Notes under the pieces: model-generated | What the model was told of the DNA's origin: nothing | The model's input: only the letters and a program-made list of their open reading frames with translations | Database searches by the model: none | Part shown: piece after piece, positions 3,820 to 11,096 of the stretch | How the letters are laid out: each line of letters starts with the position of its first letter | How positions within the stretch are numbered: position 1 is the first letter of the stretch | DNA from: a virus | Lineage: Duplodnaviria; Heunggongvirae; Uroviricota; Caudoviricetes | Virus record (IMG/VR): IMGVR_UViG_2703718809_000014 | Length of the DNA: 23,522 nt | Reading direction: 5' to 3' (one strand) | Translations under genes and position numbers: made by a program

Positions 3820-4023
3820 ATGGCAATTAAGCATTTTCCCGTCGTTCGCTTTACCTCCAGAGGGCGCGAATACGAGGTCGACGAACGCCTGATTACCACT
3901 ATCGACAAACATCGTTCGGAAAAGGATGCACACCACATCTACCTCACTGACGGCACTTACTTCTGCGCCACCAACGTGGCGCGGGTGAATCTTATCCGAC
4001 AGGTACAGGAGCCACGCAGATGA
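3820..4023 (+). CDS. Hypothetical early protein
   Basis: 67-aa ORF; stop overlaps the next start (ATGA), implying translational coupling. Confidence 0.55.
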   Translation: MAIKHFPVVRFTSRGREYEVDERLITTIDKHRSEKDAHHIYLTDGTYFCATNVARVNLIRQVQEPRR

Positions 4024-4286
4024 CCATTCTGGACTACATCGCTACTCATCCGGGTTGTAGCGGCGGAGAGATCGCCGCAGCACTGAATACTCCAACCACA
4101 GCCATTAATGCTGAGTTACGCCAACTTTGGCGCGGCGGCTTAGTCATCAGAACAAACCGCAGCACAGGTGGTCGCGCTCGCAAAACTGGAGGCCAGGCTT
4201 CTTACCACGTAAACCCGATGCCGTTCGGGTGTAGCAATCCACTTACTCACATGTTTAACCAGCTACTGAAGGAAGCCAGAACATGA
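4020..4286 (+). CDS. Putative winged-helix DNA-binding protein
   Basis: 88 aa; LDYIATHPGCSGGEIAAALNTPTTAINAELRQLWRGGLVIR has an HTH/wing pattern; coupled to ORFs on both sides by ATGA overlaps. Confidence 0.55.
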   Translation: MTILDYIATHPGCSGGEIAAALNTPTTAINAELRQLWRGGLVIRTNRSTGGRARKTGGQASYHVNPMPFGCSNPLTHMFNQLLKEART

Positions 4287-4582
4287 GCACCATCAACCAC
4301 CAGAAGCTACGCGAACTGGCATTTGCCCTGCAACGAATGGCAACGCCTCAAAAATTACTGGCATTTCGCGCAATGCTCTCGCCGTCTGCTGTGCTGGCAC
4401 TGCTGGATGAGCTGGAGCACGCCAGAACCACGGCTCCTGCCATTCGCCTGACACTCCATCATGAAATCGCTGATTTCTGCGCGACGTTGGAGGCACCCGG
4501 CGAACCGGAAACGCCGGAAGCAATACAGCAAGAGCTGCTGCAACGCATTGACAAGGTTTTTGATTTTTTTCTGAACCAGTAA
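4283..4582 (+). CDS. Hypothetical early protein
   Basis: 99-aa ORF, ATGA-coupled to the upstream gene. Confidence 0.6.
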   Translation: MSTINHQKLRELAFALQRMATPQKLLAFRAMLSPSAVLALLDELEHARTTAPAIRLTLHHEIADFCATLEAPGEPETPEAIQQELLQRIDKVFDFFLNQ

Positions 4583-5207: not shown

Positions 5208-5597
5208 ATGATTGACGCTCATGACTTCACAAGATGGGTGCGCACACAGGACACCCGTCTGGCTCCCGTTCTTCAGGGATTATTTGATCTCTACATCCGT
5301 GGTCGTGACAACAGAGCACGCACCACAAAACCGGAAAATGCAGACACCCTTTATTTCACAGTAGACGACTGCTACCGCGTGGACTTCACACCACACGGGC
5401 TGGCGTTGCATTGCCTGACACCACACGGAGAATCACTGCTGGCGTATTACGACTCCCCGGCCTCCGTATTTGCGGCAATGCTGGCGCATCGCACTGCTGG
5501 CGGGTGTGCCTCGCTGAGTGAATACACCGCTGAATTTAACCGCCTTTCTGCCCTCTTCTCGCAGGAGTGGCAGCGCGTGACGGGATACCAGCCATGA
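5208..5597 (+). CDS. Hypothetical protein immediately upstream of gpA
   Basis: 129-aa ORF; its stop overlaps the gpA start (ATGA). Confidence 0.6.
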   Translation: MIDAHDFTRWVRTQDTRLAPVLQGLFDLYIRGRDNRARTTKPENADTLYFTVDDCYRVDFTPHGLALHCLTPHGESLLAYYDSPASVFAAMLAHRTAGGCASLSEYTAEFNRLSALFSQEWQRVTGYQP

Positions 5598-8434
5598 GTG
5601 AGTTTGCATGGAGCTGGAATGAACCACGGCCAGCCATTGATCCGGCCAGATTTACGGAGCACAGGCAGGAAACTGAAACCGACCTACAACGCGCCATCCG
5701 TTACTACCTTGAGGCAGACAAAAAGGCTCTGGAAGAACAGGAAGCGAAGGAGGAAGCCTTTTTCGCACAATCCACCGTGGGTAAAAAACTCATGGCATCC
5801 CTTGAGGAAGCCGGACAGCGTGAAAAGCTGGCACAAAGCATCATCAGCAAGCGTCAGGCAACAGAACAAGACCCGGTGGCCCGTGCTTTTGCCACACTGA
5901 AGGTGCTTCCCGTTTATCTGCGTGAACCTCTGAGCCGCCACCTCTCTTTCCTGCGCAAAAAACAGGAAGCCGATCGCCAGAAAGGCAAAAAGAGCTGGCA
6001 GGCTGAACGCTACGCGCGCGGAACCCTGCGCAAAATATTCGAACGCCTGGACCGCACCGATCACCGCTGGCTGACACCGGGTTATCGCTCCCTTGCCGGA
6101 CGCGAACGCCTGGACGATTTGCTTTACCTGCCGCAGCTCAACAAACACCAGATACAGACGCTGGCCACCATGACGGCGGCGATGTTCAGCAGCACCTTCG
6201 AAAAACTCTGCGATGGCTTTGGTGCGACTGATGGCGAACTGACCATGGATGTAACGCTGAAGGCGTATCAGATGCTGGCCCGCATGGCGTTACACCTGCA
6301 CGCCATGCCTCCACATTATGACGCACTGACAACAGACAAAGACCGGAGGAACGAACCGGACACGGAGCTGCTGCCGGGCGCAATCCTTCGCCTGACCTGT
6401 GCGGAATGGTGGAAACGCAAACTGTGGCTGTTACGTTGCGAGTGGAGAGAAGAACAACTCCGCGCCGCCTGTCTGGTTTCCAGAAAAACATCACCCTATC
6501 TGAGCCAGGACGCGTTAAGCGAGTTTCGCGCACAGCGCGAGAAAACACGCGATTTCCTGAAAAGTTTCATGCTGGAAAACGAAGACGGGTTCACGATTGA
6601 TCTCGAGACAGTGTATTACGCGGGAGTAAGTAACCCGGTTCACCGTAAGGCAGAAATGATGGCCACCATGAAGGGGCTGGAACTTCTGGCCGAAGCCCGT
6701 GGCGACAAAGCGGTGTTTCTGACTGTCACCTGCCCGTCAAAATACCACGCCACAACAGAGAACGGTCATCCGAATCCCAAATGGAACGGGGCCACCATGC
6801 GCGACTCCAGCGATTACCTGGTTAACACGTTTTTTGCGGCGGTCCGCAAGAAACTGAACCGCGACGGCCTGCGCTGGTATGGCATCCGCACGGTGGAGCC
6901 TCACCATGACGGCACCGTGCACTGGCATATGATGGTCTTTGCTCATCCGGAAGAAATCGACACCATTGTGTCCCACACCCGCGATATTGCCATTCAGGAA
7001 GACCGCCACGAGCTGGGCAATGATATTACTCCGCGCTTTAAGGTGGAGTATGTCGACGGCTCAAAAGGCACGCCAACCAGCTACATCGCCACCTACATCG
7101 GAAAGAACCTGGACAGCCGCGCCGTGGATGGCATCGACCCGAAAACGGGCAAGCCACGCGTTGACCACGAAACCGGAAAATCAATGGCCGAGAGCGTGGA
7201 ACGCGCCATCGGCTGGGCACGCCTTCACCGGGTCCGCCAGTTCCAGTTCTTTGGCATCCCCTCCCGTCAGGTATGGCGTGAACTCCGCCGCCTTGCCAGC
7301 CAGATGGCACGCAACCCGGAAGGCCCGCAACGGCTGAAGGATGATGCAATGGATGCGGTACTCGCTGCCGCTGATGCCGGGTGTTTTGCCACCTACATTG
7401 AGAAACAGGGCGGCGTACTTGTTCCACGCAAAGACTACCTGATTCGCACCGCCTACGACCTCGCAGATGAGCTGAACGATTACGGCGAACAGAGCGTACA
7501 GATTTACGGGATTTGGTCACCACTCATCGGGGAATCCTCCCGTGTGTGCACGCACCCGGATAACTGGAAGCTGGTAAGACGTAAACCGGAAGCGGAAGAC
7601 AGCACCCGCGAAAATGGTTTTGACCTTCAGGGCGGCCCTGCCGCCCCTTGGACTCGTGGCAATAACTGTCCCCGTGTACAGGAAACGGACAACAACGGGA
7701 CAGAACAGCCGGAAGAACGGCCAGCACCGTGGCCGCAGCTTCCTGACGGCGTTGATGTGGATGAATGGATGCGCTCACTGAAACGGCACGAACGCCGGGC
7801 GCTGATGCGTTCGCTGCGTGACAAACAGGCAAAAAACAGCAGTGATGAAATGCAGAGCTGGACACAGAGCCGCAAACAGCAGCGGCCTTTACCTGATAAC
7901 CACGAATTACTCGCTAAAGAATGGCGGGAGTCTGCCGAATCTCTCGGCCTGCATATCGGTGAACAGCAGATGCAGCACCTGTTACGGGGCGGCAGCCTGT
8001 ACGTTGACGGCAGCATCATTGCACCGCAGGGGTTTGAAATTGTACGCAAACCGGATACCCGCCCGGACAGCCGAATCACGCAGCTCTGGCAGCGCCTGAG
8101 CCGTAATCACGGCGTAAGCAGCACGGAGATCCGCCATAACCCGGTCGCCAGCTATCTGGAACAGCTGGGGGCATCAGACCCCGAAGCCGCCGCACGCCTG
8201 GCATCCACACTTCAGCAGGACCAGAACACCATGAAAACACCCGTTACCGTGCTTTCTGACATGCTGCGCGCCATCCGTGACGCAGAGCACGCACAGAGAA
8301 TCAGTGAAACCACTGAACGCGCCCGCCGCAAAGCAGATCTGCTGCGGGGTGGCCTGACCAGTGGAAACAAAAAACAGACAGAAACGGGATTCACAAATCC
8401 CGTAAATGAGCAAAAAACGCGCCGCGATATATGA
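5594..8434 (+). CDS. A: Rolling-circle replication initiator endonuclease (P2 gpA-like)
   Basis: 946 aa from ATG at 5594. Contains HUH-type motif TVHWHMMVFAHPEEID and paired catalytic tyrosines in TSYIATYIGKN (Y-x3-Y), both characteristic of P2 gpA-type Rep proteins. Confidence 0.9.
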   Translation: MSEFAWSWNEPRPAIDPARFTEHRQETETDLQRAIRYYLEADKKALEEQEAKEEAFFAQSTVGKKLMASLEEAGQREKLAQSIISKRQATEQDPVARAFATLKVLPVYLREPLSRHLSFLRKKQEADRQKGKKSWQAERYARGTLRKIFERLDRTDHRWLTPGYRSLAGRERLDDLLYLPQLNKHQIQTLATMTAAMFSSTFEKLCDGFGATDGELTMDVTLKAYQMLARMALHLHAMPPHYDALTTDKDRRNEPDTELLPGAILRLTCAEWWKRKLWLLRCEWREEQLRAACLVSRKTSPYLSQDALSEFRAQREKTRDFLKSFMLENEDGFTIDLETVYYAGVSNPVHRKAEMMATMKGLELLAEARGDKAVFLTVTCPSKYHATTENGHPNPKWNGATMRDSSDYLVNTFFAAVRKKLNRDGLRWYGIRTVEPHHDGTVHWHMMVFAHPEEIDTIVSHTRDIAIQEDRHELGNDITPRFKVEYVDGSKGTPTSYIATYIGKNLDSRAVDGIDPKTGKPRVDHETGKSMAESVERAIGWARLHRVRQFQFFGIPSRQVWRELRRLASQMARNPEGPQRLKDDAMDAVLAAADAGCFATYIEKQGGVLVPRKDYLIRTAYDLADELNDYGEQSVQIYGIWSPLIGESSRVCTHPDNWKLVRRKPEAEDSTRENGFDLQGGPAAPWTRGNNCPRVQETDNNGTEQPEERPAPWPQLPDGVDVDEWMRSLKRHERRALMRSLRDKQAKNSSDEMQSWTQSRKQQRPLPDNHELLAKEWRESAESLGLHIGEQQMQHLLRGGSLYVDGSIIAPQGFEIVRKPDTRPDSRITQLWQRLSRNHGVSSTEIRHNPVASYLEQLGASDPEAAARLASTLQQDQNTMKTPVTVLSDMLRAIRDAEHAQRISETTERARRKADLLRGGLTSGNKKQTETGFTNPVNEQKTRRDI

Positions 8435-8476
8435 AGCGCGCATAAAACAGGCAAAAACGGGATTTCAGAATCCCGT
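8384..8476. repeat. Twin 20-bp palindromes ACGGGATT-N4-AATCCCGT (8384-8403 and 8457-8476) within a roughly 35-bp direct repeat
   Basis: Read directly: ACGGGATTCACAAATCCCGT and ACGGGATTTCAGAATCCCGT, each with perfect 8-bp inverted arms; the first lies inside the gpA 3' end, the second between gpA and the parM-like gene. Confidence 0.7.
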
Positions 8477-8510
8477 AAACGATTAATTAATCAACATAAG
8501 GAAAAGCGAC

Positions 8511-9470
8511 ATGAAAATTTGTATCGACGACGGCTCCACCAACATCAAGCTGGCATGGACTGAGAACGGCGAACGCCGCAACGCCATCAGCCCGAACAGC
8601 TTCAAGTCGGAATGGTCTGCGCCGTTCGGTGGCACGCAGCCCGCGAACTACATGCTTGATGGCGTGCGCTATGGTTTTGATCCGGTCAGCGATCGCTTTG
8701 TCCAGACGACCGACACGCAATACCAGTACAGCGATGTGAATGTCATTGCCATTCATCACGCGCTGGTCAAATCAGGCATCACACCACAGGAAGTGGATGT
8801 GGTTGTCACCCTGCCACTGAGCGAGTATTTCGACACAAACGCACAGCCGGACATGGCCAACATCAACCGCAAAAAAGCGAACGTTATGCGCCCGGTGGAG
8901 TACCAGAACGGCGAAGCATTCACTATCCGTAACGTGCGGGTTATGCCTGAATCCATTCCGGCTGGCTTTAAAGCACTGGCTGACATGAGTCCGTTTGAAT
9001 CCCTGCTGATTGTGGATTTGGGCGGAACCACGCTGGATGTGGCAAAGGTTCAGGGGCAGCTGGCAGGTATCAGCCAGGTGTTTTGCGATCCACACGTAGG
9101 CGTTTCTCTGATGGCCGATGCCGTGCTGTCGGTGATGGCCACCAACGGTATGCGCACCAGTCACCACATCGCCAATACCATTATCGAACATCGCCACGAT
9201 GAAGCCTGGCTGCGCCAGCACATCCACAATGACGCGCATTACGCCAGCCTGATGGCGGTTATTCGTGAAAAGGAAGAAACACTGAAACAACGCGTGATCC
9301 GCGCGCTGGCGGGTTTTTCGGGTTACGGGCGGGTGATGGTTGTCGGTGGCGGGGCGGAGATTGTGGCACCCGCTATCCGCGAAGCCTGCGGAGTTAATGC
9401 GACTTTCATTGCGGACGGGGTGCCACAGTTTGCTCTGGTTAATGGGCTGCACGCAATGGACAAGGAGTAA
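8511..9470 (+). CDS. parM: Actin-like segregation ATPase (ParM/StbA family)
   Basis: 319 aa. N-terminus MKICIDDGSTNIKLAW...ISPNSFK...YQYSDVNVIAIHHAL, then LLIVDLGGTTLDV, FSGYGRVMVVGGGAEI and ALVNGL parallel plasmid R1 ParM (MLVFIDDGSTNIKLQW...SPNSFK...WQYSDVNVVAVHHAL...LLIIDLGGTTLDI...VMVIGGGAEL...LVNGM as recalled). RBS AAGGA upstream. Confidence 0.85.
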   Translation: MKICIDDGSTNIKLAWTENGERRNAISPNSFKSEWSAPFGGTQPANYMLDGVRYGFDPVSDRFVQTTDTQYQYSDVNVIAIHHALVKSGITPQEVDVVVTLPLSEYFDTNAQPDMANINRKKANVMRPVEYQNGEAFTIRNVRVMPESIPAGFKALADMSPFESLLIVDLGGTTLDVAKVQGQLAGISQVFCDPHVGVSLMADAVLSVMATNGMRTSHHIANTIIEHRHDEAWLRQHIHNDAHYASLMAVIREKEETLKQRVIRALAGFSGYGRVMVVGGGAEIVAPAIREACGVNATFIADGVPQFALVNGLHAMDKE

Positions 9471-9474
9471 ATCA

Positions 9475-9786
9475 ATGGCGACATCAACCAGGAGGATAAG
9501 TTTCTATCTGAAGCCCGCCGCCGTCAAGAACGAAGGCGAAGCATGCGCCTGGCTGGACAGCCTTACACCAGAAGCCCGCAAAAGCGGTCAACGCGTGGCT
9601 TTTCTGGCCGGGCTGGCACTTCTGAAAATGAATCCGGCAGAGGCTTACCGACTGGCTGCATGGGCTGACGATGAGGCGTTATCAGTGACACAAACTAGGA
9701 CGGAACGCCCCGTGTCACAGCCAGCACCAACCGCACAGATAACCAGTCAGATGGCCGGAAATATCCGGGCGTTATTTCCTGAATAA
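9475..9786 (+). CDS. parR: ParR-like small DNA-binding adaptor (putative RHH)
   Basis: 103 aa from ATG at 9475 (AAGGAG 8 nt upstream). RRISFYLKP...WLDSLTPEARKSGQRVAFLAGLALL...IRALFPE parallels R1 ParR (RRTIAFKLNP...TLDSIPQGERSRLNRAALTAGLALY...LRSLFPKE as recalled). Sits directly after parM as in parMR operons. Confidence 0.65.
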   Translation: MATSTRRISFYLKPAAVKNEGEACAWLDSLTPEARKSGQRVAFLAGLALLKMNPAEAYRLAAWADDEALSVTQTRTERPVSQPAPTAQITSQMAGNIRALFPE

Positions 9787-9849: not shown

Positions 9850-10497
9850 ATGAGCAAAATTAACTATCAGGCACTGCGTGAGATAGCAAAACTGGCAACA
9901 CAGGGCGAATGGGTCGCATTCATTTCGCCGGGCACTGATACATATGCGGTGCATACGCCGGGGGATGAACGTTGCGGAGACATTATCAAATGGCCAGGCT
10001 TTGACGACCAGAAAAATGCAGAGAACAACGCAGAATTTATCGCAGCTTTCAACCCTGAAGTAGTACAGGCGTTGTTGGATGAACGGGAAGCCCAAAGTAA
10101 ACGCATTGCAGAGCTGGAGACTAATCTGGTGACACTCGCGGCGGAGAATGAGGCGTTGAAGTCGAACCTGATTTACTGGGGCGGCGAAGATTCAGGGGCT
10201 GTCAGAAGTCCGCTTGATTACGCCCGTGCAGCCGGGCTGGAATCTGGAGAGGAGTTTGAGATGCAAGTGGCAGCCAGAATGCCGAACCTGACTTATCGCG
10301 TTGTGTCGAATTCCCGATTCAGAACAACAATAGAACTGGTTGACGGATCATTGCCGGAAACCCCAGCCACCAATGCTTTTCTGGCTGAAGTACGAGCACA
10401 AGGCGTGGAGATGTTTGCTGAGTGCGCATACACACTTGAACATCATGATCACGCAGTAGCTTTTGCCGCCGAACTACGTAAAGGAGATAAACAGTGA
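9850..10497 (+). CDS. Ead/Ea22-like family protein with coiled-coil segment (paralog 1)
   Basis: 215 aa; N-terminus MSKINYQALREIAKLATQGEW matches the conserved Ea22-like N-terminal motif as recalled; predicted coiled coil KRIAELETNLVTLAAENEALKSNL; AAGGAG RBS. Confidence 0.7.
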   Translation: MSKINYQALREIAKLATQGEWVAFISPGTDTYAVHTPGDERCGDIIKWPGFDDQKNAENNAEFIAAFNPEVVQALLDEREAQSKRIAELETNLVTLAAENEALKSNLIYWGGEDSGAVRSPLDYARAAGLESGEEFEMQVAARMPNLTYRVVSNSRFRTTIELVDGSLPETPATNAFLAEVRAQGVEMFAECAYTLEHHDHAVAFAAELRKGDKQ

Positions 10498-11096
10498 ACA
10501 AAATTGACTATCAGGCACTGCGTGAGGCAGCACAAAACTATCAGTCGACGCTGGCGTGGTATGAGGCCATCCCGGATAGCCCATGCTCTGAGGTTGATTG
10601 TGATAGAGTTTTGGCTGCGTTTAAGTGTCAAATTCGTCATCGGGAAATGGATATTATCGCCGATCTGCTGGATGAACTGGACGAAAAACAGCATTACATC
10701 AAACTCCGCGACCAGGAAAACGAGGAAATTGCGATAACGATAGGGAAGCTGCGTATTGAGCTGGAAGAAGCAAAATCAAAACTCAACGAGCAGCGTGAGT
10801 ATTACAAGAGTGTTATCGCCGATGGAAGTAATCGCATTGCAGAACTGGAAGAGATCGCCACTGACTACGCACTGAAATTTCAGAAAGCACAGGATGCACT
10901 AAAGCATGCTGTGTTAATGCGTAACAAATCGCTTTCTTTTGAGAAAGCGGTGCGTCACCCAACCTCAGAGTGTGGCACATTTACAGTGGAGATCCCGAAT
11001 CCAAAGGAGTATTTCATTAACGGCGTATTCCAGCCTTTGCGATACGAACGGGATGTTGAACGAGCCATCATAAAGGCAGGTGGAAAAGTCTCGTGA
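10494..11096 (+). CDS. Ead/Ea22-like family protein with long coiled coil (paralog 2)
   Basis: 200 aa; GTG start at 10494 overlapping the upstream stop (GTGA), AAGGAG 8 nt upstream; N-terminus MNKIDYQALREAA shared with paralog 1; extended heptad-like region LRIELEEAKSKLNEQREYYK...IAELEEIATDYALKFQKAQDALK. Confidence 0.7.
   Translation: MNKIDYQALREAAQNYQSTLAWYEAIPDSPCSEVDCDRVLAAFKCQIRHREMDIIADLLDELDEKQHYIKLRDQENEEIAITIGKLRIELEEAKSKLNEQREYYKSVIADGSNRIAELEEIATDYALKFQKAQDALKHAVLMRNKSLSFEKAVRHPTSECGTFTVEIPNPKEYFINGVFQPLRYERDVERAIIKAGGKVS

Follow-up and report, generated by a model that had tools for sequence, protein, structure and literature searches.

Twin palindromes upstream of parM: a putative minimal split parC in P88-like prophages

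Why should a phage carry the same 20-bp palindrome twice at the 3′ end of its replication gene, once inside the coding sequence and once beyond it? The question is raised by IMG/VR record IMGVR_UViG_2703718809_000014, a stretch of 23,522 nucleotides (hereafter the window) from a P88-like, P2-type temperate phage of the genus Xuanwuvirus (Caudoviricetes), in which the palindromes lie where gpA, encoding the replication endonuclease, meets parM and parR, encoding an actin-like partition ATPase and its presumed DNA-binding adaptor. We propose that the twin sites are the minimal, split parC of a prophage-borne type II ParM/ParR partition cassette and that ParR is their binder, a reading to which we give a probability of about 0.68. 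The region is 95–97% identical to P88, P884B11, PhiR44_2 and Citrobacter phage Shae_phiSM. Annotations of P88-like phages routinely include parM and parR, though not a cis site for them, and our literature search found no paper on the centromere of P88-like parMR.

Both sites are perfect palindromes built of two 8-bp arms around a 4-bp spacer, and they begin 73 bp apart. Site 1 (8384–8403; ACGGGATT-CACA-AATCCCGT, in full ACGGGATTCACAAATCCCGT) falls within the last 17 codons of gpA, and site 2 (8457–8476; ACGGGATT-TCAG-AATCCCGT, in full ACGGGATTTCAGAATCCCGT) is intergenic, ending 35 bp ahead of the parM ATG. Each forms the centre of a larger unit with an A-rich left flank (16 nt in unit 1) and a right end of the form AAAYGA: unit 1 (8368–8409) closes with AAATGA and unit 2 (8441–8482) with AAACGA, and the two align without gaps over 42 nt at 81% identity. 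A preliminary description of this DNA had placed two perfect palindromes 73 bp apart within 8374–8486, a range that does enclose both; the direct repeat around them is present as well, and is longer than the roughly 35 bp it was then given. Chance does not explain the pair, since only 0.12 matches to the palindrome at three mismatches or fewer are expected in the 23.5-kb window, in which two perfect copies were found, and since 0.01 matches are expected for the core GGGATT-N4-AATCCC at one mismatch or fewer, with none of 100 shuffled sequences giving two. No further copy occurs in the window at up to three mismatches. The wider search for additional copies that the preliminary description had suggested gave these two sites only in the entire 35.8-kb P88 genome and, among the matches listed for the exact palindrome in IMG/VR, this junction accounts for 114 of 119 loci.

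The twin sites are read as a split parC because they stand directly upstream of a parM-parR operon whose products are of the plasmid R1 type. ParM (8511–9470, plus strand) matches Pfam StbA_N at 1.8e-82 and the ParM C-terminal domain at 4.3e-68, and it matches the R1 ParM structure 1mwk with E = 3.9e-92. ParR (9475–9786, plus strand), an adaptor of the predicted ribbon-helix-helix type and the presumed site binder, belongs to PF10784 (3.7e-24). When this single ParR sequence was compared with the PDB sequences there was no match; the family profile was required, and it matches the pB171 ParR/StbB structure 2jd3 at E = 2.5e-9. Phage and plasmid ParRs are about 25% identical and have in common an N-terminal R-x-x-x-F strand and the motifs LDS..ER and G.AL, and the N-terminal TRRISFYL is invariant among all phage-borne relatives. 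On the DNA side, the half-site AATCCCGTAAA (AAACCCGTAAA and AAACCCGAAA in two of the divergent relatives described below, L213 and Plesiomonas) resembles the R1 iteron AAACCCAAAAA, and an R1/NR1-type stbAB locus carries iterons of the type AAACCCAAAAAC in two blocks.

Divergent relatives were gathered through ParR protein searches, the contigs then being fetched; a contig search for distant ParM loci gave three matches only, all at least 98% identical. Some loci could not be used, namely one with a Shigella plasmid match and insertion-sequence-like DNA upstream (L203), two that begin inside parM (L212, L219) and two frameshifted or noisy assemblies (L225, L227). Close variation was drawn from 102 distinct E. 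coli-type haplotypes, each comprising the 200 bp upstream of parM.

Among these relatives, parMR-linked sites are kept in different contexts. At three loci (L213–L215; ParR 55% identical), an open reading frame (ORF) of 145 amino acids intervenes between gpA and parM, and both sites still lie directly upstream of parM, 73 bp apart. In L213 this ORF (2494–2931) has no Pfam match and terminates in a stop codon that overlaps site 1 at its end, the frame through the site reading KRDSQNP* and closing at its right edge; the site 1 core carries a single difference, T15A (AAACCC). In Hafnia (L209–L211; ParR 73%, ParM about 94%), the sites are GCGGGATT-CATG-AATCCCAA and ACGGGATT-TGAA-AATCCCAT, again 73 bp apart, with the gpA stop codon TGA inside the site 1 spacer and the GGGATT/AATCCC core kept. 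The most distant relative found is a P2-like prophage of Plesiomonas shigelloides (L226), with ParM at 63%, ParR at 40% and an identical TRRISFYL. There, twin 26-nt direct repeats, GCGGGACAACAAAAACCCGAAATAGC and GCGGGACAACACTAACCCACAATGGC, lie 72 bp apart (GCGGGACAACA..AACCC; GCGGGACAACAAAAACCC / GCGGGACAACACTAACCC), repeat 1 in the 3′ end of gpA, 8 bp ahead of its stop codon, and repeat 2 upstream of parM. Such a pair is expected by chance 0.01 times, and 0 of 200 shuffles gave two. What the Plesiomonas repeats keep is CGGGA-N9-CCC(G) alone; the AT-rich inner arm and most of the hairpin potential are lost, and there is no T-tract.

The same comparisons mark where the module begins. In the 16-bp flank of site 1, the window is identical to L213 and Hafnia at 11–13 of 16 positions, and beyond 16 bp to the left only 4 of 24 and 9 of 24 positions agree, so site 1 with its A-rich flank forms the left end of a module made up of the sites, parM and parR. 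The preliminary description had looked to phages with the repeat at the gpA end beside unrelated cargo, unbound by the ParR-like protein, as the finding that would tell against a tie to the downstream genes; no relative that keeps the repeat with parMR so replaced was found, which favours the linkage. A defective prophage of E. coli EC7518 (L228, 2490–2545) has lost the element to a deletion that brought a DUF4761 gene up against parM and took away gpA and both palindromes; this deletion ends exactly at the right edge of site 2. Taken together, the comparison assigns the element to parMR and not to the coding sequence of gpA. A prophage on the IncC plasmid pC-Ec2-KPC (L204) is of further help, as its ParM is 99% identical, its sites are the same and its ParR (4001–4315) is 50% identical overall, with the first 20 residues almost unchanged and the C-terminal LFPE kept. 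This pattern fits recognition of the sites through the N-terminal strand of ParR, and it suggests that parR has recombined internally or that its middle part is under diversifying selection.

How closely is the element held? The spacing is 73 bp in 97 of the 102 haplotypes. Between the window and Hafnia, all 24 of the 24 core positions (GGGATT/AATCCC) agree, compared with 35 of 53 in the inter-site DNA and 214 of 300 at parM third codon positions; by our own arithmetic, 24 of 24 under this 71% neutral proxy has a probability of about 3e-4. The same core is found in both copies in every lineage. The outer arms and spacers do vary (T7C at site 1; A1G, C18T and the common TCAG to TAAA change at site 2), site 1 of P88 being ACGGGACTCACGAATCCCGC and many haplotypes carrying GCGGGATT...AATCCTGT at site 2. 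Thus the earlier argument that perfectly palindromic arms betray selection was too strong, since the outer arms vary in relatives including P88 and the GGGA../..CCC core alone is fixed; perfect arms are a feature of some lineages only. The family-wide signature is best described as two CGGGA-N9-CCC sites about seven helical turns apart, upstream of parM. We read the conserved unit as a DNA site, rather than a peptide, a terminator or a neutral scar, because core and spacing are kept in Plesiomonas with almost no hairpin potential and because the frames through the sites differ by lineage.

The peptide deserves a closer look, since the preliminary description had noted correctly that the first copy encodes TGFTNPVNE within gpA and that the second lies out of frame beyond the gpA stop and runs to a TAA. 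The longest gpA ORF (5567–8434, plus strand; Pfam Phage_GPA, 4.4e-131; 940 amino acids in the annotated P88 homologue) extends into the module by its last ~17 codons, reading TGFTNPVNE across site 1, then QKTRRDI and a TGA at 8432–8434; the stop thus falls between the sites. In another frame, site 2 gives ...KQAKTGFQNPVND* (TGFQNPVND, then TAA), the end of a 26-codon ORF not mentioned in the preliminary description (MSKKRAAIYEARIKQAKTGFQNPVND; 8406–8486, plus strand) whose ATG at 8406 comes right after site 1 and which spans the inter-site segment and site 2. The tail of gpA is plastic: through upstream frameshifts and indels in A runs, it ends at 8403–8405, 8432–8434, 8443–8445 or 8484–8486 across the 102 haplotypes, and where the A6 run at 8411–8416 is one A shorter, gpA is fused to the small ORF with the tail ...NPVNEQKRAAIYEARTKQAKTGFQNPVND*. 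Part of these frameshifts may be sequencing errors.

Could the repeat then be a coding feature after all, either a repeated C-terminal gpA peptide whose downstream copy is reached by frameshifting or in variants, or a real 26-codon gene? About 95 of the 102 haplotypes have the small ORF intact, Hafnia and L213 have it at unchanged length, and the shortened A run does produce a fusion with gpA. Yet relatives show site 1 in three or more frames or stop arrangements, including other frames in the frameshifted E. coli haplotypes, the small ORF is without a Shine-Dalgarno sequence and carries many non-synonymous variants, and Plesiomonas has the twin DNA repeats with no peptide. A frame of 26 codons could also well be open by chance, and with the spacing fixed its length would stay constant without further constraint; the ORF is possibly no more than a by-product of that spacing. 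For the C-terminal ~85 residues of gpA, moreover, relatives are confined to the phage genus. We regard a coding role as very improbable, and read the look-alike peptides TGFTNPVNE and TGFQNPVND, together with the last ~17 gpA codons, as by-products of an overlapping DNA element. The earlier view of a duplicated gpA coding segment finds no support as a coding feature, as relatives carry the same DNA in other frames or at the ends of other ORFs. Another idea, a non-functional duplication or a recombination scar (the scar also having been raised early on) that dates from the attachment of the parMR cargo behind gpA, fares somewhat better and is still unlikely. It draws on the coincidence of site 1 with the left similarity boundary between lineages, a placement that stands, on the plastic gpA tail and on the EC7518 deletion endpoint at the edge of site 2; a neutral scar, however, should decay, and the twin layout, the 72–73 bp spacing and the core persist down to 63% ParM and 40% ParR identity, with inter-site DNA diverging beyond alignment while both copies keep the core in every lineage.

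The symmetry of the sites could alternatively serve RNA, with tandem intrinsic terminators on the minus strand shielding gpA from antisense read-through, or plus-strand hairpins between gpA and parM acting in processing or stability. A T-rich run follows each hairpin on the minus strand and both score as terminator-like, the A-rich left flank is kept in Hafnia, the region folds better than shuffled sequences (z = -5.4 and -4.8 on the two strands), and the site 2 variants A1G and C18T would retain G-U pairs on the plus strand. Against minus-strand terminators, there is no minus-strand gene for about 3 kb to the right, parM, parR and two Ead/Ea22 genes all lying on the plus strand; against plus-strand terminators, neither stem is followed by a U-tract. 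Wobble changes lean in opposite directions at site 1 and site 2, with no consistent strand signal, low folding energy arises trivially when two copies of a palindrome pair with each other, and no Rfam match at E ≤ 1 was found in 8200–8700. Terminators do not require identical stems and a fixed spacing of 72–73 bp, and in Plesiomonas only a 3–4 bp dyad with a 10-nt gap is left, with no minus-strand T-tract. RNA hairpins as the main function seem distinctly unlikely in this light. A DNA site bound by something other than ParR is perhaps even less probable. The binder might be a host factor, a different regulator of the phage or gpA itself, an HUH endonuclease that could recognise hairpins at an origin or a terminus. 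Inverted repeats are common targets of HUH enzymes, gpA contains site 1, and it is from sequence that we infer ParR as the binder. The sites, however, adjoin parM even where another ORF separates them from gpA, the module has its boundary a short way to the left of site 1, and the gpA proteins of Plesiomonas (789 amino acids) and the window (about 940) are very different where the N-terminal strand of ParR is identical. The P2 origin nick sequence, in the form used here and possibly wrong, had no match at three mismatches or fewer and so gave no placement of the gpA origin.

With a ParR-bound split parC as the preferred reading, it is possible to sketch how the element might work. Each palindrome would act as two inverted iterons with the core CGGGA-N9-CCC, on which a ParR dimer-of-dimers could sit, and the pair would make up the split parC, serving in cis as the centromere and probably as the operator of the cassette. 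At 72–73 bp, the bound sites would be separated by seven helical turns and face the same way on A-tract-rich DNA, and both could then enter one ParR-DNA complex capturing the ends of ParM filaments; perhaps the complex also represses parMR expression. The cassette would abut gpA so tightly that the gpA frame runs on into site 1, giving rise to the look-alike peptides. Whereas sites, repeat structure, spacing, parMR linkage and core conservation are observed, we infer ParR binding, complex formation, regulation and segregation. The preliminary description had named a parC-like centromere or operator for the ParR-like protein as a candidate, and it is towards this candidate that the comparative evidence points.

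Several points weigh against this proposal. The operator half is weak because no sigma-70-like promoter was detected, a consensus scan of 8000–9000 giving no promoter-like match in the sites or in the DNA separating them; parMR and gpA may share a transcript. There are four half-sites here and ten iterons in R1, and the enterobacterial parC sites examined (R1, IncF and IncL/M loci) are direct repeats, not palindromes. Across the 102 close haplotypes, the arms are not clearly less variable per column than the neighbouring DNA. Since the DNA-reading strand of ParR is invariant in the family, there is no co-variation of protein and site to score. Finally, a role in segregation is not obviously needed, because the element is almost always chromosomal (1440 of 1442 junction copies).

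What, then, might a plasmid-type centromere do for an integrating phage? One could speculate that the two palindromes, joined to the end of gpA, are a working centromere of unusually small size where bound ParR does more than partition: standing at the gpA stop as an operator or a roadblock, it would link expression of parMR to the early (replication) operon. ParM filaments would then position or separate excised, replicating circles during induction or establishment, as AlpAC may do for the Corynebacterium prophage CGP3. Together with a hok-type gene, this would make the phage a latent phage-plasmid. This extended scenario is doubtful. Two observations touch on the same subject. P88 (L224, NC_026014.1) has a MokW-like gene of the hok/gef host-killing type at 34928–35068, outside the window, and with it a second function in stability, of a kind known from plasmid R1. 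In addition, a circular sequence of 34,461 bp deposited as a plasmid (L205, NZ_CP148288.1) is a complete P88-like phage genome with gpA, parM, parR, terminase and scaffold genes, and represents either a plasmid state of the phage or the assembled replicating or excised form.

Of 5426 complete E. coli genomes, 1303 carry the junction (8340–8520), O157:H7 and O104:H4 strains among them. A defined 20-bp site would therefore offer a handle on the purpose that segregation machinery of the plasmid type serves in a phage that integrates and that about a quarter of complete E. coli genomes contain. If the proposal is true, these sites are among the smallest type II centromeres, and palindromic ones, which would make them useful for studying ParR ring assembly. 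There is also a warning for annotation, in that an overlapping DNA element would account for the seeming repeat of a peptide and for the final ~17 gpA codons. A contig labelled 'Vagococcus sp. WN89Y' (L207), a Gram-positive organism, encodes a ParM 98% identical to the E. coli prophage gene and probably reflects contamination of the assembly.

Further features surround the sites. The 53-bp inter-site segment (8404–8456), which holds the gpA stop, is where a promoter would be expected by analogy with R1. Hand-picked candidates, TGAGCA-N15-TATATG in the window and TGAACA-N16-TATAAG in Hafnia, are weak and not found in Plesiomonas, and we claim no promoter. Between site 2 and the parM ribosome-binding site lies a third, different perfect palindrome of 12 bp, GATTAATTAATC (8481–8492), which shows the symmetric double change GGTTAATTAACC in 8 of the 102 haplotypes and a single change in another 8 of 102; Plesiomonas has TTATTAATCAA at the equivalent place. 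This palindrome might serve as a further operator or belong to a promoter. Downstream of parR, two adjacent Ead/Ea22-like genes occupy 9850–11096 on the plus strand, and short stretches within 9851–9900 match lambdoid phages (HK97, HK75 and others). The region from parR to the portal gene is different in every relative examined, and behaves as a cargo hot spot.

The twin sites probably conform to a known kind of element, the type II parC, in where they lie, in their partner genes, in being repeats and in being split. They depart from it in that there are two palindromic units only and that the first reaches into the 3′ end of gpA. In type II systems the centromere is found upstream of parM and is either continuous, as in pSK41, or split around the promoter, as in R1, with one ParR dimer per repeat and repression of the promoter by the complex; ribbon-helix-helix proteins, for example omega, can use direct and inverted repeats equivalently (PMC5016525). 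The parC of R1 consists of 2 × 5 iterons of 11 bp around a 39-bp promoter gap, is intrinsically curved and forms a U-shaped complex (PMC2241845). Like R1/NR1 parC, the phage element lies directly upstream of homologous parM and parR genes, has its repeats in two blocks (the gap being 39 bp in R1 and 53 bp here), and is set in A-rich, A-tract-phased DNA, each unit having AACCC/AATCCC followed by an A run. The ParRs belong to the same Pfam family and have the conserved N-terminal R-x-x-x-F strand, though they are only about 25% identical. Unlike R1, with its 2 × 5 direct 11-bp iterons, the phage element has 2 × 1 palindromes, i.e. four inverted half-sites; the promoter documented in the R1 gap has no detectable counterpart here, and the left block runs into the 3′ end of the gene that precedes it.

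Other systems are informative in different ways. In pSK41, parC is made of 20-bp units, each of two 10-bp halves, that are bound by ribbon-helix-helix ParR dimers (PMC5016525), a likeness to the 20-bp palindromes of the window; pSK41, however, has four contiguous direct units in an unrelated Gram-positive system, and the phage has two separated palindromes. The srpC site of the SXT/R391 elements (SrpMRC) has four direct and inverted repeats upstream of a parM homologue and is bound by SrpR in electrophoretic mobility shift assays (PMC4489591), and thus sets a precedent for a type II centromere with few short repeats on a normally chromosome-integrated element. It differs in that SrpR has no detectable similarity to ParR, its repeats are 13 bp long and of other sequence, and its host is an integrative and conjugative element, not a phage. 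A prophage-borne filament system is known from Corynebacterium prophage CGP3, in which the adaptor of the AlpAC/alpS system binds repeats near its own operon and the actin-like filament has been proposed to position replicating phage DNA and not a plasmid (PMC4446434). AlpAC has the reverse gene order, proteins unrelated to ParR and 24 short TTAAnnG repeats, and yet, as a filament system carried by a prophage, it provides a possible functional model for what ParMR may do in an integrating phage.

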